Of a stretch of 64,000 nucleotides of DNA, positions 35,267 through 47,877 are shown piece after piece. The notes beneath the pieces are model-generated. The model did no database searches and was not told the DNA's origin. It saw only the letters and a program-made list of their open reading frames with translations. Each line of letters begins with the position of its first letter. Positions within the stretch are counted from its first letter, which is position 1. The DNA comes from Hamadaea sp. (GTDB taxonomy: Bacteria; Actinomycetota; Actinomycetes; Mycobacteriales; Micromonosporaceae), in assembly GCF_013362815.1 (NCBI RefSeq), contig NZ_JABFVK010000027.1, forward strand, positions 7,140 to 71,139. The letters run 5' to 3'. The position numbers and the translations under genes are program-made.

Positions 35267-36682
35267 TTAGGAAGGAGTGTGTACCGTTCCTGCGACCTTC
35301 ATGTGCCTGGCCCGCCGGTCCAGCTCCCGGTGGTCGATCTTGCCGTTCGGCAGCGTCGGCAGCTCGTCGACCTGGATCAGCTGAGTCGGCAGAGCTGCGG
35401 CGGGCAACGCGGCCAAGAGGTGACGGCGTACGCCGGGGCGGTCGAGCGATGCGGCGATCAGGAACGCCACCAGGCGGCCGTTTGCGACCCCCACGGCGGC
35501 GTACGCGATGCCGGGCGCACTGGCCAGCGCGTGCTCGACCTCGGCTCGCTCGATCCGCATCCCGCCGAGTTTCAGCTGGTCGTCGCCGCGACCGTGGTAC
35601 AGCAGTGCGCCGTCGGGCCGCCGGGCCACCAGATCGCCGGTGCGGTAATAGGGCTCACCGTCCAGTGTGGTCAGTTCCACGGTATTCGGCTCGGCCAGGC
35701 CCGGGCTGCTGACGTGGAGCACGCCGTTGACGAGGGCGATGTGCGTACCGGGGATGGGGTGGCCGATCGGCACCGAGCGCTGCGTCGCGTCGCCGGGCTC
35801 GCATTCGTGGACGGTGCACCAGACGGTGCACTCCGTCGGGCCGTACTCGTTGAACATCCGGGTGCCGGGCAGTCGTGCGAAGTGGTCGCCGACCAGACCG
35901 GGCGGGCAGGCTTCGCCCGCCACGATCGCGGCACGCAAGCTCGACAACTCGAGTCCGCCACGTAGGGCGACGGCGTACAGGGACGGCACGAGCAGCAGAT
36001 GCGTCGGGTGGTACGCCCGCGCGGCGCGGCCGAGGGCGACGAGGTCGCCGGGCCGATCGCTCGGGATGTGGACGGTGCCGCCGCAGGCGAGCGTCCAGTA
36101 GATCCCCGCCACTGAGCTGTCGAACGAGATCGACGAACACAACAGGAAACCGCCGACCGGCTCGCGATAGTAGGCCAGCCGAGCGGCCGTCGAGTACGCC
36201 AATGCCGCCGACGAGATGGTCACCGGCTTCGGCGTACCAGTGGAACCGCTGGTGAAACAGGTGTAGGCGAGCCGGCCGCGGCGTGTCGTCCGTCCTTCAT
36301 AAAGCGAGGGCAGCGCGGTCAGGTCGATCGAAAGCAGGTCCGGCCGCAACGAGGGCAGTCCCGGTTCGGTGAGCACGACGCGAGCACCGGCGGCGTCGGC
36401 GTACTGCCGTTGCCGGGCGGGTGGAAAGGCGGCGTCGACCGGAACGTAGCGAGCTCCGGCTCGCAATGCGCCCAGCATGGCCACGATCGCCCAGCGCGAC
36501 AGTCGAGTGTGGACTAGCACGGGATCGCCTGCTGTCACCCCGTTTGCCACCAAGGCATGCGCGGCACGGGCGCTCAGATCGTTCAGCTCGGTGTAGGTCA
36601 GCTGCCCGCCGCGATCGGTCACCGCCACCGTGGGGCCGGGCAGGTGTGGCTCGACGAGGTCGAGGATGTGCTCGGGCCACAT
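35267..36682 (-). CDS. Stand-alone NRPS-type adenylation (AMP-binding) enzyme
   Basis: 471 aa. Motifs: LTYTELN, YTCFTSGSTGTPKP (A3), FDSS (A4, Asp retained), NEYGPTE (A5), YRTGD (A7), GRGDDQLKLGGMRIE (A8), PNGKID (A10). 1-nt stop/start overlap with the upstream C gene. Confidence 0.85.
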   Translation of the reverse strand: MWPEHILDLVEPHLPGPTVAVTDRGGQLTYTELNDLSARAAHALVANGVTAGDPVLVHTRLSRWAIVAMLGALRAGARYVPVDAAFPPARQRQYADAAGARVVLTEPGLPSLRPDLLSIDLTALPSLYEGRTTRRGRLAYTCFTSGSTGTPKPVTISSAALAYSTAARLAYYREPVGGFLLCSSISFDSSVAGIYWTLACGGTVHIPSDRPGDLVALGRAARAYHPTHLLLVPSLYAVALRGGLELSSLRAAIVAGEACPPGLVGDHFARLPGTRMFNEYGPTECTVWCTVHECEPGDATQRSVPIGHPIPGTHIALVNGVLHVSSPGLAEPNTVELTTLDGEPYYRTGDLVARRPDGALLYHGRGDDQLKLGGMRIERAEVEHALASAPGIAYAAVGVANGRLVAFLIAASLDRPGVRRHLLAALPAAALPTQLIQVDELPTLPNGKIDHRELDRRARHMKVAGTVHTPS

Positions 36683-37860
36683 CAGCGGACTCCCGCGAAG
36701 AGCGGCAACTGCCGCAGGTACGCCGAGATCAGCTCGTCGATCGTGTCGGCGGTGTACGCACCGGTGTCGTAGGTGACGATTCCGGCGCCACCGGGATGGA
36801 CGGTGAACAGCATCGGACAGCCCAGAACCACCGACGGCGGCGTCTCAGGCCCGGCCGGCACAGCAGTCCATTGTGGCTGGACGACCGGCGGGGTCATCGA
36901 CGGCCGGGCGACGAGCCGGAAGGCCGGGGCGGCTCGCGTACCGGCCAGCACGTCGAGCAGTCCGGGAACCTCGCCCAGCACCGGCACGAGCGGGATGTCG
37001 TCCGCGTACGCCTGACGGCAGGCCGCGTCCACCCGCCGGAGCAGCTCGGCGGGGTCGGCCGCGGTGGGGATCGACACCCGCATCGTCAGCACGTTGAGGA
37101 GGAAGCCGACGGTGTCCCACTCGGACGGGATCCGGCCCGGGGTGACGACCGGCAGCAGCGCCTCGGCGAAATGCCCGGCCGGATACAGCATCGCGGCATA
37201 CGCCGAAAGCAGCACGGTGAACGGGGTGCTGCGCGCTCGCCGGGCGCTGCCGACCACCGCCTGCCAGAGGTCGTCGCCGAGGCGGAACGGGGTTTCGGCG
37301 TACCTGCCGCTGACCGGATCGCACCCCGGGCGCTCGACCTCGTCGAGCCCGGCCAGCCGCGTACGCCATCGCGGGAGCACTTCCGCGATGCGCTCTTGCC
37401 ATTGCGGCGAACGATCGTCGTTCGCGATGTCTGCGTACTGCATGATTTTGGTGGAGAGCCGGTCCCCCCGAAGCCGAGCGTGGTATGCCGTGGCGATGTC
37501 CCGGGCGATCACCGCGACCGACCACGGATCGGCGGCGCTGTGGTGCGCGGCGAGATCGAGCCGGTCGTCGCGCAACCGAGCGCGCAGCGTGGGCAGCTCG
37601 GTGGCCGGGAAGGGATCGGCGTAGCCGTCGAAGCGCACGGGCTCGGGCGGCTGGACCCGGCTGCCGCCGGGCTCCCGGAGGCTGCGCAACGCCTCGTGCC
37701 GGGCCACGACGTCGCCGAGCGCGGCCCGCAGCAACTCCTCGTCGATCGCACCCGCGACCTGGAAGGACTGCTCGACGACGAACCGGTCGCCGGTGGTCCG
37801 GCCCGGAGCGTGCCGTTCCAGCAGATCGAGGAGGTCCTGGGCGTAGGTGAGCGGGTTCAT
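36682..37860 (-). CDS. Stand-alone condensation-domain protein (HHxxxD retained)
   Basis: Track ORF 36682..38559; start placed at ATG 37860 (ATGA overlap with the P450 stop). C1-like motif PLTYAQDLL; HHSAADPWS at 37525-37545. 392 aa. Confidence 0.65.
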   Translation of the reverse strand: MNPLTYAQDLLDLLERHAPGRTTGDRFVVEQSFQVAGAIDEELLRAALGDVVARHEALRSLREPGGSRVQPPEPVRFDGYADPFPATELPTLRARLRDDRLDLAAHHSAADPWSVAVIARDIATAYHARLRGDRLSTKIMQYADIANDDRSPQWQERIAEVLPRWRTRLAGLDEVERPGCDPVSGRYAETPFRLGDDLWQAVVGSARRARSTPFTVLLSAYAAMLYPAGHFAEALLPVVTPGRIPSEWDTVGFLLNVLTMRVSIPTAADPAELLRRVDAACRQAYADDIPLVPVLGEVPGLLDVLAGTRAAPAFRLVARPSMTPPVVQPQWTAVPAGPETPPSVVLGCPMLFTVHPGGAGIVTYDTGAYTADTIDELISAYLRQLPLFAGVR

Positions 37861-39062
37861 GCGACGACCACCATCGGAAGGTGCTTCAGTCCGGAGAGGA
37901 ACGCCGAGCGGACCCGAACCGGCGGCCCGGCCAGTTCGAGGTCGGACACCTCGGCGAGCAGTCGGCCGAACAGCAGCCGCAATGTGCGGCGCGCTATGTG
38001 CGAGCCGATGCAGTAATGCCGTCCACTGCCGAAAGCGAGATGCCGATTGGGCCGCCGACCAGGATGGAACCGGTCCGGCGCGTCGAACACCGCCGGATCG
38101 CGGTTGGCGGCGCTCAGCCAGGCCACGACCGGCTGGCCCGCGTCGATCTCCTGCCGGCCCAGCCGCACCGGACGGCGCGTGTGCCGCACGAAATGCATGC
38201 CGGGAGTGGCGAATCGCAACGCCTCCTCCACTCCGCTGTCGAGCAGGTCGGGCCGCTGCGCCCAGGCCCGGTACGAGCCGGTCGCCGCGAGGTGGGCCAG
38301 CACCGCACCGGGCACGCCGGGCAGCGTCACCGTCGCTCCGAGCAGCAGACTGTACGCGTTCGCGACGATCGCGCCGGCGGGCAGCGGAGCACCTTCGAAC
38401 CGCATCGTCACTAGTACGCTCACCAGGTCGTCCCCGGGTTGCCGCATACGTTGGCGAACCAGATCGGCGAAGTACGCGAACAGCTCCCGATGGCCTCGCC
38501 GCAACGTGGCGGTCACCCCGTCGGGCAGTCGGACGTCGGGATCGTCCTCGGCGGCACACATCTCGGCGAACTGCGTCAGCCGGGCCCGGTCCGACTCCGG
38601 TACGCCGAGCAGCGGGCCGACGGCGGCGAGCGGCAACTCACGGAACACTGCGGCCAGGTCGACGACCGATCCGGCCGAGCGTCGCACGGGTTCGAGGACG
38701 GCGTTCACCGCTTCGTCCACTGCGGACATGTGCAGGTCGACCGCCCGCGCATTCAGCGCCTGCTGCACCGGTGCCCGCATGTGGTCGTGCCTCGGCGGAT
38801 CGGTCGCGGCCAGCTGCCGCCCGGCGGCGGGATCGGGCCTTCCCAGGAGGTTGAGGAGCGTACCGCGCTCGCTGGTGAACGTCTCGTAGTCCGAGAGCAC
38901 CCGGTTGACGTCGGCGTACTTGGTAACCGACCAGAACCCGGGCCGGTCGGGCGTCGGCGGCTGCCAATGCACCGGGTCGGTCTCGCGCAAGTCGTGGAAC
39001 ACCGCGTGCGCCCGGCCTGACGCGTACAGGTCGGGGTCGGCGAGGTCGAGGAGGTCGTTCAC
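37857..39062 (-). CDS. Cytochrome P450
   Basis: Track ORF 37857..39260; start placed at GTG 39062 (GTGA overlap with the carrier-protein stop). EEALR (ExxR) and the haem loop FGSGRHYCIGSHIA. 401 aa. Confidence 0.85.
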   Translation of the reverse strand: MNDLLDLADPDLYASGRAHAVFHDLRETDPVHWQPPTPDRPGFWSVTKYADVNRVLSDYETFTSERGTLLNLLGRPDPAAGRQLAATDPPRHDHMRAPVQQALNARAVDLHMSAVDEAVNAVLEPVRRSAGSVVDLAAVFRELPLAAVGPLLGVPESDRARLTQFAEMCAAEDDPDVRLPDGVTATLRRGHRELFAYFADLVRQRMRQPGDDLVSVLVTMRFEGAPLPAGAIVANAYSLLLGATVTLPGVPGAVLAHLAATGSYRAWAQRPDLLDSGVEEALRFATPGMHFVRHTRRPVRLGRQEIDAGQPVVAWLSAANRDPAVFDAPDRFHPGRRPNRHLAFGSGRHYCIGSHIARRTLRLLFGRLLAEVSDLELAGPPVRVRSAFLSGLKHLPMVVVA

Positions 39063-39337
39063 GCCGACGCCAGCTCGGCGACGATGGTGGCGGCGAGTTC
39101 GGCGACGGTCGGCGTGAGGAACAGCGTCCAGGTGGGAACCTCGACCCCGAACAGCTGGTCGATCGCCAGTTGCAGCTCGGCCGCGAGCAGCGAGTCGCCG
39201 CCCAGCTCGAAGAAGTCGTCGTGTACGCCGATCGGCGCCACCTCCAGCCGGGCGGTCCACAACTCGGCGAGCTGTTGTTCGACCGGATCCCGAGGAGCGA
39301 CATACTCCGTGCTCAGGTCCAGCGCCTGGCGGTTCAT
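39059..39337 (-). CDS. Stand-alone peptidyl carrier protein (PCP / thiolation domain)
   Basis: Track ORF 39059..40135; start placed at ATG 39337 (ATGA overlap with the upstream stop). 92 aa with the phosphopantetheine site FFELGGDSLLA. Confidence 0.8.
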   Translation of the reverse strand: MNRQALDLSTEYVAPRDPVEQQLAELWTARLEVAPIGVHDDFFELGGDSLLAAELQLAIDQLFGVEVPTWTLFLTPTVAELAATIVAELASA

Positions 39338-40731
39338 CGGCGTACCCCCATCTCGTCCATCAGTAGGTCCGCGAGGAGTGTGTCGGGCGCAGTGACGAGC
39401 CGGTCGGCGGTCGCGCGGAACCGGGCCGCAATCCGCTCCACCGTGGCGACCTCGAACATCGCGGGGTCGTAGGTCACCCGGACGACGAACGAGGCGTACG
39501 GCTCCATGACCCAGAGGAAGTCCACCGGCATCACCGGCGTCTCCCGCACCACCGCCGGCGGTAACCCCAGTCGTCGATAGTGGACGGTGGCGTCCGGATC
39601 CTCGGACCGGGGGATGGGCCGGCACAGCTGCATCGGCGCGGGCACGACGTCGCGCGCTTCGAACGCCGCCTCGGCCAGCTCCGGCAGCTCCTCCAGAATC
39701 CGGATGAGCGGCACGTCGTGGCGCAGCGCTTCGGTGTTCACGTGGTGGACGTGCGCCGCCGCTTCGGCCACCGTCATCGTGCCGGACAAGTCCAGCCGCA
39801 ACACGTGGCCGTTGAGGTAGAAGCCGATGCCGTCCCAGTCGCCCGCACCTCGCCCGGCCGACAGCACCGGGACGGCGATGCGGGTCTGACCCGCGGGCCC
39901 GGCGTGCTCGGCGTGCTCGGCGTGGCCGGCTAGGGCGACGGCGTACGCGGTCAGCAGGAGAGTGAACTCGGTGGTCCGCAGCGTTCTCGCCCGCGAACGC
40001 AGGCCCGCCACGACCCCATCCGGCAGCTCGAACGTGTGCAGCGCCTTCTCCCCGACGGCTGCTTTCGGGGAAAGCGGGCGCGGGCGGTCGGCCGGGATGC
40101 CCACTCGGCGTACGCCGGAAAGCTGTTCGCGCCAATACGGCAGCGCCTCCTGGATGCGCTTCTCCCGTTCGGGCGCAGCCTCGGCGGTGGCGTGATCGGC
40201 GTACTGCGGAACGGGGGCGACCGAGGCCGACGTCCCCCGCCGCCGACGTTCGTACGCCGCGACGACGTCACGGATCGCGACCTGCATGGTCCAGCCGTCG
40301 GCGACCGTCCGGTGGATGAGCAGGATGAGGCTCGACACGTCCGGGCCGAACCGGACGAGGTCGGCGGCCATCAGCGGAACCCGGTCCGGCGGCAGCGGCC
40401 GGGTCAGCGCCTCGGCCGTGATCTCGGCGGTGATGCGCAGCCGTTCGTCGACCGTGGACGCAGTGGCGTCGTGAATGCGCAATGGCACCGGCGCGGGTTC
40501 GGCGACTCGCTGGAACGGGAAGCCCTCGTCCCGCACGACCAGCGTACGCAGTCCGCTGTGCCGCACGACCAGCTCGTCCAGCGCCTCCTGGAGGAGGTCC
40601 GGCGCGACCGGCCCGGTCAGCTCGTGCGCGCACCAGTTGACGAACCCGCCGCCGAAGACGCTGCCGCCGTCGTGCACGGCGAACGCGGCGAGCAGCTGCT
40701 GAGCGTAGGACAGGGGTGCTTCGGTGGTCAT
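39334..40731 (-). CDS. Stand-alone condensation-superfamily protein with degenerate active site (HRxxxDG)
   Basis: Track ORF 39334..40869; start placed at ATG 40731. C1-like motif PLSYAQQLL. The active-site position reads LIHRTVADGW (40294-40314), so the second His is Arg. 465 aa. Confidence 0.65.
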   Translation of the reverse strand: MTTEAPLSYAQQLLAAFAVHDGGSVFGGGFVNWCAHELTGPVAPDLLQEALDELVVRHSGLRTLVVRDEGFPFQRVAEPAPVPLRIHDATASTVDERLRITAEITAEALTRPLPPDRVPLMAADLVRFGPDVSSLILLIHRTVADGWTMQVAIRDVVAAYERRRRGTSASVAPVPQYADHATAEAAPEREKRIQEALPYWREQLSGVRRVGIPADRPRPLSPKAAVGEKALHTFELPDGVVAGLRSRARTLRTTEFTLLLTAYAVALAGHAEHAEHAGPAGQTRIAVPVLSAGRGAGDWDGIGFYLNGHVLRLDLSGTMTVAEAAAHVHHVNTEALRHDVPLIRILEELPELAEAAFEARDVVPAPMQLCRPIPRSEDPDATVHYRRLGLPPAVVRETPVMPVDFLWVMEPYASFVVRVTYDPAMFEVATVERIAARFRATADRLVTAPDTLLADLLMDEMGVRR

Positions 40732-40802
40732 CGGCAACTCCAAACTGCGTGTTTCGGGGCGCTGCGGTCGGGCGGTCTCGCGCTGGCGTTTCGGGCGGTC
40801 TC

Positions 40803-40864
40803 GCGCTGGATCACGGATCTGGGTCGTATTCCGGTCAAGATTCGGCCCGGAACCCTGATCCAGC
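40803..40864. repeat. Palindromic extragenic repeat, family 2 (copy B)
   Basis: GCGCTGGATCACGGATC...CAAGATTCGGCCCGGAACCCTGATCCAGC, 27 nt downstream of the reductase stop. It is preceded by a 19-nt direct duplication of its left flank (40768-40786 and 40791-40809). Confidence 0.7.
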
Positions 40865-40890
40865 ACCAAGAAAGCCGGCTCAAAAGAGGG

Positions 40891-41974: not shown

Positions 41975-42030
41975 ATCGTTCGAAAGCGTTCGAGGTCCGC
42001 GTTCGGGCAGGTGAACTGGGGTGTGCGCGA

Positions 42031-42930
42031 TCAGATGCGATCGACTGCGAACAGCTGCGCGGGGTCGTCGGCCGAGCAGGCCGCGAAGACGACGGCGCGG
42101 GCTCCGGCCTCGGGGCGTACCGCGAGGCACTGTCCGAGTTCGACATTGCGGAGCAGATGCCCGCCGCCCGCCTCGCTCAGCGTGAAGAGCTGATGCTTGA
42201 CGTCCGTGCAGTAGCCGTCCGACGGCCGGTCGTCGTCCGCGACCGGATCCACGCCCATGCAGCCCTCCCCGAACTCCGGGTGGGAGGTGCGGAATCGGAC
42301 CGCGCCCCCGGCCACGGACTCGACTTTCAAGGTCGGGAACGCCTGCTCGCACGGCTCGATGAACAGATATCCGGTACTCCCGGTGTGTTCGCTCAGGCAG
42401 CCGGGGCCGGTCAGGGGGCGTACCCGGACGGTCGCGTTGGAGTCGGTGGGCACGGCGGCGGGCTTCTCCGGCGCCCGGTCCGTGGCCCACCAGGTCACGC
42501 CCGCGCCGGCGACTACGATCGCCGCCACAAGCGCCCATATGGATACGCGATTGAGTGGCAGGCGGTTCCAGCGACCAGCGACCGGGGCGTCCGGCGTGTC
42601 CGGGGAAGTCTCCGGCGACTCCGTCTCGTCCGCAGTGGACGGCGTGCTGGTGACGATCCGGCGGCGGGCGGCGAGCCAGACCGCGAGCTCCTCCCGGCTG
42701 CATCCGCAGGCCAGCAGCATCGCCGTCACGACCTCCTGGCGCGGCATGGTGTCCCGGTTGAGGGCGGTCGCCAGCGTGCTGATCGGCAGCGCGACGCCCT
42801 GCGCCCGGGCCCGTTGGGCGATCTGCCGATAGCTGAGCTCGGAGGCGACGCGTACGCGGCGGAGCAGGTCGACGAACTGGGCGGCGGAATTGGCGGAGGC
42901 GGGATCGATCCCGAGGTCGGTCATGCCCAT
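42031..42930 (-). CDS. HTH (XRE-like) regulator with one TM helix and a Cys-rich extracytoplasmic domain
   Basis: N-terminus FVDLLRRVRVASELSYRQIAQRARAQGVALPISTLATAL. A Ser/Pro/Thr linker follows, then TM helix IWALVAAIVVAGAGVTWW and a 150-aa domain with six Cys and a C-terminal QLF. Confidence 0.55.
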   Translation of the reverse strand: MGMTDLGIDPASANSAAQFVDLLRRVRVASELSYRQIAQRARAQGVALPISTLATALNRDTMPRQEVVTAMLLACGCSREELAVWLAARRRIVTSTPSTADETESPETSPDTPDAPVAGRWNRLPLNRVSIWALVAAIVVAGAGVTWWATDRAPEKPAAVPTDSNATVRVRPLTGPGCLSEHTGSTGYLFIEPCEQAFPTLKVESVAGGAVRFRTSHPEFGEGCMGVDPVADDDRPSDGYCTDVKHQLFTLSEAGGGHLLRNVELGQCLAVRPEAGARAVVFAACSADDPAQLFAVDRI

Positions 42931-42994
42931 GGCCCCTCACGATATCCGGCAGGTCGCGTGTGGACGAATCGGTCGTGGGTGGACGGACGCGAAG

Positions 42995-43032
42995 GGAGCC
43001 GCCGACGTCGCCAGGCCGACGCCGACGGCTCC
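42995..43032 (-). terminator. Imperfect stem-loop downstream of the dioxygenase gene
   Basis: GGAGCCGCCGACGTCG (42995-43010) pairs with CGACGCCGACGGCTCC (43017-43032) at 14 of 16 positions, 36 nt beyond the stop at 43068. Confidence 0.35.
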
Positions 43033-43067
43033 GTTCTTCTCGCGGTCCGCCTCCCCAGGTCAGATCG

Positions 43068-43901
43068 TCAGACTCGCCGCCACAGTGCGGGCGTGTTCGG
43101 CGGCTCCCAGCCCGGCAGCGAGGTGTGCGCGATCTGGCAGACGTAGCTCAACCCGGCATAGGTGACCTGCGCGCCGAGGGCGTACGCCACATAAGGCGCC
43201 CACGTGCCGCCCGATGGCGGAGTCGGGCTGGGACTGGTGGTCTTCGTCGGAGTGGGCGACGGCGACGGCGGCGTGCCCTGGATGTTGAGGACGAAGTCGA
43301 AGGTGGCCTGCCGGCCCGAGCCGACGATCTGCACGTTCATCAGCAGGGCCGGATCGAAGATGGTGTCGGTCGAGTTGCGGGGCTCGTTCGGGAAGTACAG
43401 CTGAGTGGTCAGGATCGGCTTGCCCGGAGCCTGCACCTTCACGTGGATGTGCCGCGTACGCCCGGGGTACAGCCCCGGCACGATGCTGGTCAGGAAGTAC
43501 TTGCCCTGCGTGTCGGTGAGCTGATGACCCCGGAAGCGGGTGCCGACGTTGTCGTAGTTGCCGCCGTTGTCGCACTGCCAGAAGTCCAGCAGCGCCCCGG
43601 CAATGGGCTGGCAGGACAGCCCGACGACGTAGCCGGTCACCGTCAACGCCGTCCCCGGTCCGTCGGCGATCGACGTACGCAGCGGCGAACCCGGCTTGAA
43701 GTACGGGCCCTCGGTCTGCGGCGGCGTCAGGTCGTCGGCGTCGCAGTTCTCGGGCGTCGCCGCCAACGGCTGGCCGGACGGCGTACGGGCAAGAGCAGGC
43801 ACACTGGCCAGCAGTGGCACGGCGGGCACGATCATCGCCGCGCGGAGGATGGTCTTGCGGGACACACCGTTGGCCCGCTTCTCTTCTTCTCGGTCGCTCA
43901 T
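43068..43901 (-). CDS. Secreted (Tat-type signal) intradiol ring-cleavage dioxygenase fused to a C-terminal CBM5/12-like chitin-binding module
   Basis: Track ORF 43068..44102; start placed at ATG 43901. Motifs: SRKTILRAAMIVPAVPLLA, TEGPYF, LDFWQCDNGGNYD, YPGRTRHIHVKV. A Pro/Ser/Thr linker follows, then WAPYVAYALGAQVTYAGLSYVCQIAHTSLPGWEPPNTPALW. Confidence 0.7.
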   Translation of the reverse strand: MSDREEEKRANGVSRKTILRAAMIVPAVPLLASVPALARTPSGQPLAATPENCDADDLTPPQTEGPYFKPGSPLRTSIADGPGTALTVTGYVVGLSCQPIAGALLDFWQCDNGGNYDNVGTRFRGHQLTDTQGKYFLTSIVPGLYPGRTRHIHVKVQAPGKPILTTQLYFPNEPRNSTDTIFDPALLMNVQIVGSGRQATFDFVLNIQGTPPSPSPTPTKTTSPSPTPPSGGTWAPYVAYALGAQVTYAGLSYVCQIAHTSLPGWEPPNTPALWRRV

Positions 43902-43960
43902 GGCGACTCCTCTCTGGACGGACCGGGGACGGCGGCTGATGGCCACCGTCCCCGGGTGTT

Positions 43961-46324
43961 TCAGCAGGAACCCTGGTCGGACCAGACCGCCCAGGACCCG
44001 GGCGCGCCCGGCTCGGCGCCGGTCGACCACCAGGTCGACTTCCACCGGTGGCCGTTGTAGGACACGAGGTCGTCCGGTGCGTACGGCGTGGTGGCGCTCC
44101 ACGCGGGCAGGCCGCCACAGCCGCCGCCCCCACCACCGCTGACCGTCAACGTGAAGGTCGCGGTGTGCGTCGCCGACGTCCCGGTGCCGGTCACGGTCAG
44201 GTTGTAGGTGCCCGCCGTCGTCCCGGTCGCGACCGAGACCGTCAACGTGGAGCTGTTACCCGAGGTCACCGTGCTGGGGCTGACCGAGGCGGTCACCCCG
44301 GTCGGCGCGCCGGACACGGTCAGCGAGATCGACTGAGCGCTGCCCGACGTGGTGGTCGTCGAGATCTTCGGGCTGGTGGACTCGCCCGGTGCCACGGTGG
44401 CCGACGTCGGCGACAGGCTGACCGAGAAGTCGTCGCCGGTCGGCTGAGTCGTCACCGTCAGGGCGTACGAGGCGGTGTGCGTACCGCTCGCCGCACTGCC
44501 GGTGACCGTGACCGTCGCCGATCCGGTCGCCGCCGACGCGTTCGCCGTCAAGGTGAGCGTGCTCGAACCGCCGGAGGTGACGGTCGCCGGGCTGAACGTC
44601 GCGGTCACACCGGACGGCAGGCCGCTCGCCGACAGCGTCACGGTCTGGGCGTTTCCCGAGGTGGTGGCGGTCGCGACGGTCGTCGTGACGCTCGAACCCC
44701 GCTGGACGGTGCCGCCGGTCGGGCTGACGGACACCGAGAAGTCGTTGCCCGGCGCGACCGTGCACTGCGCCTCACCGGACTGGGCCGGCACGCTGACCGC
44801 GTCCCAGGCCGCCTTGACCGTGCGGCATTCCTGAGAGGACGCGCCGAACAGGTTGACCGCCGCGCGCAGCGTGGCGGTACGCACGTTGACGTAGCGCCAG
44901 CTCGACGTCTTCAGGTTCAGCGCGCCCATGTAGATCTGGCCGGCCTTCTGGATGCCGATGCCGGTGACGCTTCCGCCGTTGCAGGTCGGGCTCGACGGGT
45001 TGCCGCCGCTTCCGGCCGAGCCGATCGCGGTCAGGTAGAACCAGTGGTTGTTCGGCCCGGCCGCCGAGTGGACCTCGGTGTTCGGGATCGCCGACGAGTA
45101 GCAGTTCGGGTCGCCGAGTGCCTGCGGGTTGTACATGTTGCGGATCGGGCCCTGGCCGACGAGGTTGACCTCTTCGCCGACGAGGAAGTCCGGCGGGTCG
45201 TTCGGGTTGTTGGCGTATGCCTCGGTCAGCGCGCCGAAGATGTCCCCGGTGGACTCGTTGATGCCGCCGTTCTCGTTGCCGGAACCGGCGCCGCCCGGGG
45301 TGGTCTGGAAGATGGCGTGGCCGAACTCGTGCGCCACGACGTCGATCGAGGTCGCCTGTCCGGTGTTCGCCTGGTTGTGGCCGAAGCTGGTGTAGCTGCC
45401 GTTCCAGAACGCGTTGACGTCGTTCAGCCCGACGCGGGCGGGGTAACCGCCGCCGCTGCCGTTGATGCCGCTGCGGCCGAGCCAAGCGCCGAGCATGTCC
45501 CATTCGCGCTGCACGGCGTACAACGCGTCGACGCAGGCGGTCTCCAGGTTCGTCCCGCTTCCGTTGCCCCAGGAGTCGTCGGTGCCCGTGTACGCACCAC
45601 CGCTCTGGCCACCGCACTGGAGACCCGGCCGGGTGTTGTCGGTCATCGAGTAGGAGCCGCCGGAGCCGCTCGTGCCCAGGGTCACCTGGCCGTTGTAGTA
45701 GCCGTTGCCGGAGCCTTCACGGACGTCGTCGCGCAGGTCGAGGACGTGCGCGTCGGCGGCGTCCACCACGACGTGCAGACGGCTCGGCGCGTTGGCGCGT
45801 ACGCCTTCCAGCACGACCTCGTAGGCGAGCTTGTCACCACCGGGGGTGGCGAAGACGACCAGCTGAGGCGCGCCGGCCCGCTCGATCCGGCTGAGCTGCT
45901 TGCGGGCGACCGAAGCAGCCTTGGCCGCCGAAACCTTCGGCGTGACCGACGTGAGGCGTACGCCCCGGCCGAGCGCCGAAACGGTGTCCCGCACGGTGCC
46001 GGCTTTGTCGGTCACGACGACGGCGTCGCCGCCGAGCACCGGCAGACCGCGGAAGGTGCGTTCGTACGCGACGTACTGGAAGCCGCCGGAACCGGCGACG
46101 ACGTCTCGGCGTACGAATGCTTCGTTGGGGCCTTTCGCCAGCGCGTCGACGCCGCCGTCGGCGATCCGGTCGGCGGCGGCTGCGGCCAGCGCGGCCGGAT
46201 TGGCCGCCGGAGCGGGTGGGGCGTCCGGTCTGGCGCTGGCGAGCGAGACGCCCGGCATCACCAAGGCCAGACCCGCCACCGCGGCGCTGGCCGCGATGGT
46301 GATCCGAAGTCGGATGGGCTTCAC
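43961..46324 (-). CDS. Secreted M4 (thermolysin-family) metalloprotease with two Ig-like repeats and a C-terminal CBM5/12-like module
   Basis: Signal peptide and FTP/PepSY-like propeptide, zinc motif VVAHEFGHAIF, and GGINESTGDIFG. Two units of about 95 aa (DFSVSVSPTGG.. / DFSVSLSPTSA..) are followed by the tail GLPAWSATTPYAPDDLVSYNGHRWKSTWWSTGAEPG. Confidence 0.85.
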   Translation of the reverse strand: MKPIRLRITIAASAAVAGLALVMPGVSLASARPDAPPAPAANPAALAAAAADRIADGGVDALAKGPNEAFVRRDVVAGSGGFQYVAYERTFRGLPVLGGDAVVVTDKAGTVRDTVSALGRGVRLTSVTPKVSAAKAASVARKQLSRIERAGAPQLVVFATPGGDKLAYEVVLEGVRANAPSRLHVVVDAADAHVLDLRDDVREGSGNGYYNGQVTLGTSGSGGSYSMTDNTRPGLQCGGQSGGAYTGTDDSWGNGSGTNLETACVDALYAVQREWDMLGAWLGRSGINGSGGGYPARVGLNDVNAFWNGSYTSFGHNQANTGQATSIDVVAHEFGHAIFQTTPGGAGSGNENGGINESTGDIFGALTEAYANNPNDPPDFLVGEEVNLVGQGPIRNMYNPQALGDPNCYSSAIPNTEVHSAAGPNNHWFYLTAIGSAGSGGNPSSPTCNGGSVTGIGIQKAGQIYMGALNLKTSSWRYVNVRTATLRAAVNLFGASSQECRTVKAAWDAVSVPAQSGEAQCTVAPGNDFSVSVSPTGGTVQRGSSVTTTVATATTSGNAQTVTLSASGLPSGVTATFSPATVTSGGSSTLTLTANASAATGSATVTVTGSAASGTHTASYALTVTTQPTGDDFSVSLSPTSATVAPGESTSPKISTTTTSGSAQSISLTVSGAPTGVTASVSPSTVTSGNSSTLTVSVATGTTAGTYNLTVTGTGTSATHTATFTLTVSGGGGGGCGGLPAWSATTPYAPDDLVSYNGHRWKSTWWSTGAEPGAPGSWAVWSDQGSC

Positions 46325-46444
46325 GGGGTTGTTCTCCTTCTCGGGGGTTCTGGAGGGTTCTCCAGGGTGGGGAGGGAAGGCGCCGGCCTGGGCGCTGGTG
46401 GACGCCCAGGCCGGCAGGGGAGGAAACCGTGAGGTCTGTGTTTT

Positions 46445-47794
46445 TCAGCAGGAGCCGCGGTCGGCCCAGGCGGCCCAGGAGCCGGGCGCGCCCGGTTCGG
46501 CGCCGGTGGACCACCAGGTGGACTCCCAGCGGTGGCCGTTGTAGGAGACGTCGTCGCCGGGGGCGTACGCCGTGCTGGAGCTCCAGGCGGGCAGGCCGCC
46601 GCAGCCCTGGGGCGGGCCGCTGGTGGGGCCGGTGGTCGGCGACGTCGTCGGGGGAGTCGTGCCGCTGACCGTCAGCGTGAGCCCGTACGCCTGCAGGATC
46701 TCGTTGACCGGCTGGAAGTAGGTGGTGCCGCCGGAGGTGCAGTCGCCCGAACCGCCGGAGGTGACGCCCTGTGCCTGGTCACCGGCGATGAGCGAGCCGC
46801 CGGAGTCGCCGGGTTCGGCGCAGACGTTGGTGCGGATCAGGCCGGACACCGTGCCCTGGGAGTAGGTCACGGAGGCGTTGAGGGCGTTGATGGTGCCGCA
46901 GTGCCAGCCGGTCGTGGACCCCGACCGGCAGACCGTCGCGCCGACCCCGGCCGCCTGCGATCCGGCTACCGGCACGGTGCCGGGGTACCGGTTGACCAGC
47001 GCCCGGGAGGTGTTTCCCGCTGCGGTACGCACGAAGGAGTAGTCGTTGCCGGGGAAGCTCGATCCGGCGAACGTGCCGCTGGGCTGCGTCGTCGTGGCGC
47101 CGGTCGTCCCGCAGTGGCCGGCCGACACGAAGCCGCCGGTGACGGCGAATCCGACCGAGCATCGGGTGCCCGCGCCGATGTAGTACGCGTTGCCGCCGAT
47201 GACGTCGATCAGTGGGCGCGGTTGCTCCACACTGGACTCGAACCGTACGCCGTCCGCCGCCACACCGCTCGTCGCCGCCCAGACCCGGGCCGCGGCGAGA
47301 CCGCCGTCGCGGTAGAGGACGACGACGCGGTTCGACCGCACGTCGGCGTACCAGCCGGGAACCTGCCGAGGCGCGGACGCCGCGTGGCCGGTGAGCCGCC
47401 CGGTGTCGGCGAGGAGCCGGTCCTCGCTGCGGTCGACCTTGACCGGGACCGCGCCGGCCCCGCGAACGCGTGCGCTGTCGGCGGTGTTCGTCACCCCGAC
47501 CGTCAGCGCCGAGGCGTCCTCGTTGAGGTACGCGCCGCCGAACCGATCGGCGAGGTCGTGACGCAGGCGCTCTTCCGTACGCGCGAACGCCGCCTGCCGG
47601 CCGAGCCGGGCGAGCGCCTGATCGGGAGTGACGCCCAGGGTGCGGGCCAGCTCCTCGACCATGCCCCGATCGGCGGCGACCGGGACGGTGGCGGGCGCAC
47701 CCGAACCGGCGGAAGCCGTCGACGTGATCACCATCGCGGCGACTACCGCCGCCGTGGCGATCAGACAAGTTGTCAGCTTTGATCTGTTGACCAT
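46445..47794 (-). CDS. Secreted S1E (streptogrisin / alpha-lytic protease family) serine protease with a C-terminal CBM5/12-like module
   Basis: Pre-pro region, then CSVGFAVTGGFVSAGHCG (His), CAEPGDSGGSL (Ser), a Thr/Pro linker, and GLPAWSSSTAYAPGDDVSYNGHRWESTWWSTGAEPG. Confidence 0.85.
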   Translation of the reverse strand: MVNRSKLTTCLIATAAVVAAMVITSTASAGSGAPATVPVAADRGMVEELARTLGVTPDQALARLGRQAAFARTEERLRHDLADRFGGAYLNEDASALTVGVTNTADSARVRGAGAVPVKVDRSEDRLLADTGRLTGHAASAPRQVPGWYADVRSNRVVVLYRDGGLAAARVWAATSGVAADGVRFESSVEQPRPLIDVIGGNAYYIGAGTRCSVGFAVTGGFVSAGHCGTTGATTTQPSGTFAGSSFPGNDYSFVRTAAGNTSRALVNRYPGTVPVAGSQAAGVGATVCRSGSTTGWHCGTINALNASVTYSQGTVSGLIRTNVCAEPGDSGGSLIAGDQAQGVTSGGSGDCTSGGTTYFQPVNEILQAYGLTLTVSGTTPPTTSPTTGPTSGPPQGCGGLPAWSSSTAYAPGDDVSYNGHRWESTWWSTGAEPGAPGSWAAWADRGSC

Positions 47795-47877
47795 TCCTGG
47801 AATCTAGGAACGAAACTGATAACTTTATATTTCCAAATAGGTTATATTCTTAACGGTAAGGCTGGGTGATCATCCGC

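Follow-up and report, generated by a model that had tools for sequence, protein, structure and literature searches.

A stretch of 64,000 nucleotides from Hamadaea sp. (contig NZ_JABFVK010000027.1, positions 7,140 to 71,139), named here the window, carries a compact operon of six genes. In the order of transcription they encode a thioester-reductase-type protein (R), a condensation-fold protein (C1), a free-standing peptidyl carrier protein (PCP), a cytochrome P450, a second condensation-fold protein (C2) and a stand-alone adenylation enzyme (A), an arrangement that we write R-C1-PCP-P450-C2-A (Table 1). The subject of this work is C1, the condensation (C) protein in which an arginine occupies the place of the catalytic histidine. 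From C1 onward all genes overlap: the stop codon of C1 and the start codon of the PCP share ATGA, the PCP and P450 genes share GTGA, P450 and C2 again ATGA, and C2 and A share TGATG. The coupling of the C1 gene to the genes of the carrier protein and then of the P450, which the original prediction had pointed out, is thus plainly visible in the first two of these junctions. R, which displays the motifs TGGSGAVG and YxxxK, lies upstream, separated from C1 by an untranslated gap of 159 bp (window 40732-40890) that possibly contains an internal promoter or a regulatory element. This spacing shrinks to 18 bp in Micromonospora zhanjiangensis, and it becomes a 4-bp overlap in Plantactinospora (L003). 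In every six-gene cassette R is found directly upstream of C1, and comparison with four-gene cores of the form PCP-P450-C-A identifies R and C1 as two genes added upstream of such a core. The cassette and its flanks contain no megasynthetase in the four genomes where they were inspected, nor was any polyketide synthase (PKS) present near C1.

Table 1. Genes of the operon, with positions in the window, and the additional condensation genes of two related loci, with positions in those loci
Feature	Position	Strand	Basis
R, stand-alone thioester-reductase-type short-chain dehydrogenase/reductase (SDR), 327 aa	40891..41874	-	Pfam NAD_binding_4 9.8e-32; NCBIfam Thioester-redct 2.6e-25
C1, stand-alone SgcC5-type condensation-fold protein, 465 aa	39334..40731	-	Pfam Condensation 2.4e-38, residues 30-456
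HRTVADG motif, C1 codons 140-146	40294..40314	-	direct translation
Free-standing PCP, 92 aa, GGDSL phosphopantetheine site	39059..39337	-	Pfam PP-binding 7.3e-15
Cytochrome P450, 401 aa, NikQ/P450sky/OxyD-type aminoacyl-PCP beta-hydroxylase family	37857..39062	-	PDB matches 4L0E, 3MGX
C2, second stand-alone SgcC5-type C protein, 392 aa, HHSAADPW	36682..37860	-	Pfam Condensation 5.4e-20; best PDB match SgcC5
A, stand-alone adenylation enzyme, 471 aa, code DSALIAEVWK (histidine)	35267..36682	-	TIGR01733 2e-81
Extra C genes of loci L088 and L089	L088:4261-5691; L089:5970-7361	-	SHxxxDG

The reverse complement of window positions 40294-40314, CACCGGACGGTCGCCGACGGC, translates as HRTVADG and covers residues 140-146 of C1. 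The core motif of C domains known as C3 reads here I-H140-R141-T-V-A-D145-G146-W, with Arg141 at the place of the second histidine of the canonical HHxxxDG. C2 retains that histidine, its motif being HHSAADP (37545-37525). Both readings had been made in the original prediction and are confirmed by direct translation; its suggestion that X domains, the P450-recruiting C-like domains of glycopeptide synthetases, carry HRxxxDD agrees with a review of the field (PMC11546977). The arginine is a constant feature of the protein. It is present in all of the C1 orthologues (8/8, 53-84% identity), which read IHR(T/S)(V/A)ADGW and come from Hamadaea spp., M. zhanjiangensis, Plantactinospora spp. and a metagenome-assembled genome of the Micromonosporaceae, and in no fewer than eight genomes of three genera the C1 gene has an intact, full-length frame. 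Outside this group the arginine is rare. We cut 821 C-type domains from the 149 megasynthetases that resemble C1 most, and among the 809 that span the motif not one has Arg at the second-His position (0/809). The representative search with C1 that produced them was dominated by multi-domain megasynthetases, with summed domain scores, so that it served solely as a census of the C3 motif and returned no stand-alone relative outside the C1 cluster. The nearest stand-alone C enzymes of about 460 residues, at approximately 30% identity, do not use arginine there either (0/~110), and all of them have HH.

Selection has acted on C1 as it has on its neighbours. Measured against the cassette of Hamadaea flava, the ratio of non-synonymous to synonymous substitution rates (dN/dS) is 0.185 for C1 and 0.185 for the P450, with 0.136 for R, 0.245 for C2 and 0.243 for A. 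Across the three genera the amino-acid identity of C1 is on a par with that of R, PCP and P450 (70% and 58%), while C2, the fastest-evolving gene of the cassette, has the lowest values (66% and 48%). The scaffold of the active site is kept in C1 (H140, D145, G146, W147, N307 and R312), and around the motif there are invariant changes specific to its clade, T148, R162 and D404, the last of which, as a matter of speculation, might provide a counter-charge to R141 and form with it a plug in the tunnel. Because of this conservation, of the rarity of the arginine and of the dN/dS value, we take both C1 and its Arg to be maintained by selection, and C1 to be no relic. The literature searched contained no account of a free-standing bacterial C protein of the HR type, the query "HRxxxDG" giving a paper on fungal LovB-like enzymes and a review only.

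What kind of C protein, then, is C1? Among the sequences of the PDB its best match is SgcC5 (4ZNM; 146 bits, 1.8e-41), the two proteins being approximately 27-35% identical, while the X domain of teicoplanin synthetase (4TX2) reaches 55 bits and is outscored by many ordinary C domains. An AlphaFold2 (AF2) model of C1, confident across the motif (predicted local distance difference test, pLDDT, 83; predicted template-modelling score, pTM, 0.82), has the same neighbours: Foldseek places 4ZNM at rank 1 (template-modelling score, TM, 0.78-0.82; E 7e-33), and the X-domain chains 4TX3_B, 4TX2 and 6M7L_B at ranks 10, 35 and 46 (TM 0.62-0.71), among catalytic C domains, with the structure of the MokA C-terminal condensation (CON) domain, 6AD3, at rank 49. 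In maximum-likelihood trees C1 is sister, with support 99/97, to a clade (100/100) made of C2 and of the single C proteins of the four-gene cores, termed C4g. C1, C2/C4g, SgcC5 and the stand-alone HH family form together one clade (98/95 to 100/100), apart from the in-line domains of megasynthetases. These trees were built without reference sequences of X, epimerisation (E) or heterocyclisation (Cy) domains, and the comparison of C1 with X domains rests on the bit scores and on the Foldseek ranks.

The features of the protein tell the same story. C1 is free-standing, consists of a single domain with the full two-lobed C fold, and groups with SgcC5, but it has no HHxxxD with a catalytic histidine. 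It has neither the HRxxxDD motif of X domains nor their place between PCP and thioesterase (TE) in a last module; it is not most closely related to them, and the P450 beside it is not of the Oxy type with a PRDD motif. With the CON domains it has in common the form HRxxxDG, but it is not the C-terminal domain of a fungal iterative PKS. From sequences and models taken together, C1 is almost certainly an SgcC5-type free-standing paralogue, sister to C2. The original prediction had it that grouping with ordinary active C subtypes that naturally tolerate HR would tell against an X-like protein. The grouping inside the SgcC5-type clade does speak against the X-like assignment.

The remainder of the operon points to the modification of carrier-bound histidine. 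The specificity code of A, DSALIAEVWK, which was extracted manually by motif alignment and not by NRPSpredictor, is listed as a histidine signature accepting the beta-hydroxylated form (PMC12283262), and DSA[LMT][IV]AEVWK is kept in 13/13 of the related cassettes examined. A likeness of the A domain to the glycine-activating module 2 of LgrA (295 bits) was discarded as an artefact, the score having been summed over a pair of A domains (136 + 148 bits). The P450 matches, among PDB sequences, P450sky (4L0E; 231 bits, 2.6e-67) and OxyD (3MGX; 212 bits, 1.4e-61), two hydroxylases of aminoacyl-S-PCP, the former also known in a structure with its PCP (4PXH); we liken it to NikQ by type, the comparison of sequences having been made with P450sky and OxyD only. 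According to secondary mentions, NikQ hydroxylates histidine only when this amino acid is loaded on a thiolation (T) domain (PMC10099666, PMC10424215), and P450sky recognises the carrier domain (PMC10424215). The Cys loop of the P450 is FGSGRHYCIG. Its F helix starts with GVPESD, hence PESD and not PRDD, the region through which Oxy enzymes contact the X domain (PMC5238595), the wider pattern PxxD being common among P450s (PMC9299028). On these sequence features, the P450 is not an Oxy cross-linking enzyme.

In its I-helix (window 38325-38339), LLLGATVTL, a valine replaces the usual acid while the threonine is retained, whereas P450sky and OxyD have the normal form, GGDET and GGNET respectively. 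The pattern LLLGA(S/A/G/T/V)V(T/S)L is found again in the 50-60%-identical P450s of PCP-P450 cassettes (also L001, L003, L045, L070 and L086-L092), and since it is common to the whole P450 family we see the Val-bearing helix as a family trait of presumed histidine hydroxylases. The operon possesses the components of a cassette of the NikP1/NikQ type, namely a histidine code in A, a PCP with GGDSL and a thiolate P450 with homology to hydroxylases that act on aminoacyl-PCP, and, as far as sequences can tell, it most probably specifies a histidine/beta-hydroxyhistidine pathway. Histidine-loading cassettes appear to form a widespread, uncharacterised family of actinomycetes, with a near-invariant A code in six-gene, four-gene and thioesterase types alike; some adjoin large nonribosomal peptide synthetases (NRPSs; L070, L087, L091), another a gene for a LanB-type dehydratase (L045).

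The related loci were annotated by phmmer mapping and by the called genes of the contigs. A search with the P450 retrieves a large family of actinomycete enzymes, with 50-60% identity and the same I-helix signature. The arrangement PCP-P450-C-A, with neither C1 nor R at the locus, is that of Streptomyces fumanus (L045), Streptomyces sp. NPDC059002 (L070), Nonomuraea sp. N2-4H (L086), S. kanamyceticus (L087) and Allocatelliglobosispora scoriae (L092); Yinghuangia soli (L090) has PCP-P450-C, again without C1. Others dispense with any stand-alone C protein: Paractinoplanes rishiriensis (L091) has PCP-P450-thioesterase inside an NRPS cluster, and Micromonospora sp. STR1_7 (L085:8001-9428) has a natural fusion of PCP and P450 (P0311, 475 aa) followed by A and a thioesterase, a locus that resembles a minimal fused factory for a beta-hydroxy-amino acid. 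A second PCP-P450 fusion is P0309, with 498 aa. The locus L013, cut at the P450, counts neither for nor against the presence of C1.

Because of these fusions and of the loci without C protein, we consider that this family of P450s docks directly on the PCP, and it is highly probable, in view of these gene arrangements, that the P450 of the operon does not need C1. C1 is unlikely to be an X domain, because it is of the SgcC5 type and because the neighbouring P450 is found in many relatives without C1. The idea of the original prediction, an X-like recruiter of the P450, is therefore not supported: the protein is of another type, the P450 belongs to the class of aminoacyl-PCP hydroxylases, and orthologues of it live in loci devoid of C1. 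On sequence and model evidence, C1 as an X-domain recruiter is disfavoured, though not refuted.

A second protein with the same substitution comes from the C2/C4g clade. There the second histidine is kept (HH in most members, QH in L003, PH in L013) while the first varies among H, Q and P, in contrast with the C1 clade where the first histidine, H140, is invariant. The exception is the core C protein of L088 (L088:9266-10582) and L089 (L089:9296-10600), the latter being a second locus in Plantactinospora sp. B6F1: it reads (G/A)HRVAVDEW, that is HRxxxDE, and it belongs inside the C4g clade. By its place among these sequences, this His-to-Arg change is independent of that of C1. Arginine for histidine has thus at least two origins in this small family of enzymes, against none in about 900 comparison domains. 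Both loci have, ~2 kb upstream and on the other strand, an extra stand-alone C gene, very divergent and long-branched, with SHxxxDG (Table 1). The type of cluster they represent comprises two genes for ABC transporters (with, in L088, a further gene of the major facilitator superfamily, MFS), the divergent stand-alone C gene and PCP-P450-C-A.

Each of the two HR variants has, then, a second, His-bearing C gene nearby, and every locus with a single C protein keeps the second histidine (HH in six, PH in L013). This is what would be expected if the Arg form were unable to perform the off-loading condensation by itself. C2 has peculiarities of its own: in Hamadaea and M. zhanjiangensis its N-lobe is shorter by approximately 22 + 10 residues, corresponding to a strand and to helix alpha3, and these are present in C2 of Plantactinospora and in all C proteins of four-gene cores. 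Despite this loss C2 keeps HH, and its AF2 model (pLDDT 86) is still a compact C fold.

As to the surroundings of the cassette, its flanks in the window (~42000-47800) are syntenic with those of Hamadaea flava (L093:13-6719), with a regulator of the HTH_31 family, an intradiol dioxygenase-CBM5/12 protein, an M4 protease and an S1 protease. M. zhanjiangensis and Plantactinospora have the same six genes in unrelated surroundings; hence the cassette moves as a unit.

Putting these data together, we propose the following course of events. A would load L-histidine on the free PCP, as its code suggests. The P450 would dock directly on the PCP, in keeping with its homology and with the natural PCP-P450 fusions, and it would hydroxylate the tethered histidine at the beta position. 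The product would leave the carrier via C2, by acyl transfer to a free nucleophile in the manner of SgcC5, and/or via R, as an aldehyde. The P450 would reach the PCP without help from C1, whose role would be auxiliary and non-canonical: to act on the PCP-bound (hydroxy)histidyl thioester, or to hold it for C2 and R. With its C fold and the structural residues of its active-site core preserved, C1 probably still binds the arm of the PCP. Since its arginine is fixed, rare and selected, and since HR occurs only beside a second, His-bearing C protein, C1 most likely lacks the standard His-dependent acyl transfer. Neither the X domain, with HRxxxDD (PMC11546977), nor the LovB-like CON domain, with HRxxxDG, where Arg is dispensable and Asp essential (PMC13492342), is described as amide-forming. 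On the strength of these comparisons we tentatively favour an auxiliary and non-canonical C1, maintained by selection, that is a paralogue of the C enzyme responsible for off-loading and is devoid of the standard His-dependent transfer, although we give this view slightly less than even odds; that C1 does not condense we would put, from the sequences, slightly on the probable side.

A number of observations weigh against this view. The second histidine is not essential in every C domain (PMC11546977), and by analogy C1 could still conceivably carry out acyl transfer; it does keep the rest of the active-site scaffold. C1 is full length, while C2 is reduced in its N-lobe and evolves faster, and for this reason C1, not C2, could be the main working enzyme. 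The single C protein of the four-gene cores always adjoins the P450, and this family of C proteins may, from its gene order, combine a catalytic with a docking role. Finally, the association of HR with two-C loci amounts to only two independent evolutionary events.

Several of these points find their natural place in a different explanation, where C1 is an active acyl-transfer enzyme of the SgcC5 kind, making an ester or an amide, in a pathway that needs two condensation steps, such as an N-acylation of His-S-PCP followed by transfer or by reductive release. Arg141 would position or activate an unusual acceptor, or stabilise the tetrahedral intermediate. The other core motif residues and the fold are indeed preserved, in a model that is confident across the motif; purifying selection equals that of bona fide enzymes; C1 is more complete and better conserved than C2; loci with two C proteins may simply require two transfers; and the role of the second histidine is debated, its mutation not always abolishing activity (PMC11546977). 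Yet arginine is tolerated in none of the 809 in-line domains and none of the ~110 stand-alone relatives, the histidine is kept wherever there is one C protein only, and the two HR precedents, the X domain and the LovB-like CON domain, are not described as making amides (PMC11546977, PMC13492342). We regard an active C1 as possible but doubtful.

One might also group C1 with the HRxxxDE protein of L088/L089 and see in both a set of free-standing, non-catalytic adaptors, dissociated counterparts of X and interface domains, which would organise the hand-over of the loaded PCP among the P450, the catalytic C protein and the reductase. Were this unlikely proposal true, trans-acting pseudo-condensation scaffolds would have evolved at least two times in bacterial type II (dissociated) NRPS. 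In the line of the original prediction, C1 would be a free-standing adaptor of the X- or interface-domain kind, which would bind the P450 and present to it the PCP-bound substrate. This idea takes its appeal from the His-Arg pair that the C3 motif of C1 shares with the HRxxxDD of X domains, from the coupling of the gene to those of PCP and P450, from strong purifying selection on a protein deprived of the canonical catalytic residue, from the presence of both independent HR variants in PCP-P450 cassettes, and from the accepted idea that C-like domains can recruit hydroxylases in trans, examples being X domains and interface domains (PMC12230676). It has to face, however, that X domains are no closer to C1 than other C domains, that the P450 has PESD and not PRDD, that enzymes of the P450sky/OxyD/NikQ type recognise the carrier protein itself, as the 4PXH complex and PMC10424215 have it, and that orthologous P450s do without C1, without any stand-alone C protein (L085, L091), or as fusions with the PCP. 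Moreover, C1 joined the cassette with R, not with the P450. This recruiter is, to our mind, distinctly improbable.

An equally improbable role for C1 would be that of catalyst of some other reaction on the beta-hydroxyhistidyl thioester, using H140, R141 and D145: dehydration to dehydrohistidine, retro-aldol cleavage, epimerisation or cyclisation. C domains with an altered chemistry are documented, such as dehydrating C domains and the beta-lactam-forming C5 of NocB (PMC10510592), and both the invariance of H140, unlike the variable first histidine of C2/C4g, and that of the clade-specific T148, R162 and D404 would fit such a role. Such a role is nevertheless a matter of pure analogy: no sequence signature was seen that ties C1 to characterised non-canonical C subtypes, and the remaining substitutions specific to C1 are not consistently common to the HR variant of L088/L089. 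That C1 is a decaying, functionless duplicate, as the loss of the canonical catalytic histidine might have intimated, is effectively refuted by a dN/dS of 0.185, equal to that of the P450, by the frame intact in at least eight genomes of three genera and by the invariance of the arginine.

The interest of this system extends beyond the operon. What the second His of HHxxxDG does is still debated, and we have here a matched pair of sister C proteins, one with His and one with Arg, together with an independent second Arg variant. The components are small soluble proteins and the substrate is probably histidine, which makes for a tractable test of what a C fold with Arg for His may be: a dead scaffold, an altered catalyst or a partner subunit. 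The system could also show how the P450, the condensation enzyme and the reductase of a dissociated NRPS pass a carrier-bound intermediate among them. For annotation the lesson is that an HR motif beside a P450 should not be called an X domain before both the C subtype and the class of the P450 have been checked. Lastly, the work defines a widespread family of actinomycete cassettes, PCP-P450-C-A, putatively devoted, by their sequences, to beta-hydroxyhistidine.

Among known systems, one likeness is with the C-terminal CON domain of LovB-like fungal iterative PKSs, whose motif HRxxxDG has the same form as that of C1. The domain is essential, its Arg is not canonically catalytic, and it is implicated in decalin formation (PMC13492342). 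For the rest, CON is fungal, fused to a PKS and has no PCP-aminoacyl substrate, while C1 is bacterial and free-standing. Interface (I) domains are embedded in megasynthetases and associated with siderophores, and C1, free-standing with a P450 as its neighbour, is set apart from them by this description. The partners of interface domains are iron/2-oxoglutarate (Fe/2OG) hydroxylases, not P450s. Interface domains of siderophore NRPSs are C-like, and in antiSMASH 8 they are linked to trans beta-hydroxylases of tethered amino acids (PMC12230676, PMC10212144). The X domain of glycopeptide synthetases (Tcp12 module 7; 4TX2, 4TX3, 6M7L) has, like C1, a C fold, His-Arg at C3 and P450s in its system; it is non-condensing and works with P450s on a carrier-bound substrate (PMC11546977). 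It sits, however, between PCP and TE of a megasynthetase, carries HRxxxDD and recruits the Oxy cross-linkers, where C1 is free-standing, carries HRxxxDG and has beside it a P450 of the hydroxylase type.

For the core of the operon, the models are the NikP1/NikQ/NikP2 system of nikkomycin, BpsD/OxyD/Bhp and P450sky, where A, PCP and P450 likewise operate on an aminoacyl thioester, and the histidine code of A is that of the beta-hydroxyhistidine pathways. The systems of the Nik/Bps type release their product by hydrolysis and are not known to use a C-fold protein or a reductase for it. Thioesterase release is also that of the cassette relatives L085 and L091, as in the NikP1/NikQ/NikP2 and BpsD/OxyD/Bhp systems, whereas the operon would rely, unlike them, on one or both of its SgcC5-type C proteins together with a thioester reductase. 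NikQ needs only histidine on the T domain according to two articles that mention no C-fold partner (PMC10099666, PMC10424215).

The closest parallel to C1 is SgcC5 of the C-1027 pathway in Streptomyces globisporus (4ZNM/4ZXW), a condensation enzyme that forms esters or amides. Like C1, it is a free-standing single-domain C fold of ~460 aa, and it works with a PCP that is likewise free-standing and on which the tethered amino acid undergoes tailoring in situ. The tailoring enzymes which cooperate with SgcC5 are flavin-dependent, and not P450s. The two proteins differ in their motif, HHxxxD in SgcC5 (IAHHTAADAW) and HRxxxDG in C1, and in their company, SgcC5 being the sole C protein of its sub-pathway while C1 coexists with a His-bearing paralogue. 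SgcC5-type enzymes in cassettes that tailor carrier-tethered amino acids were already known; what is new in C1 is an arginine for histidine, in a free-standing protein, paired with a paralogue that has kept the histidine.

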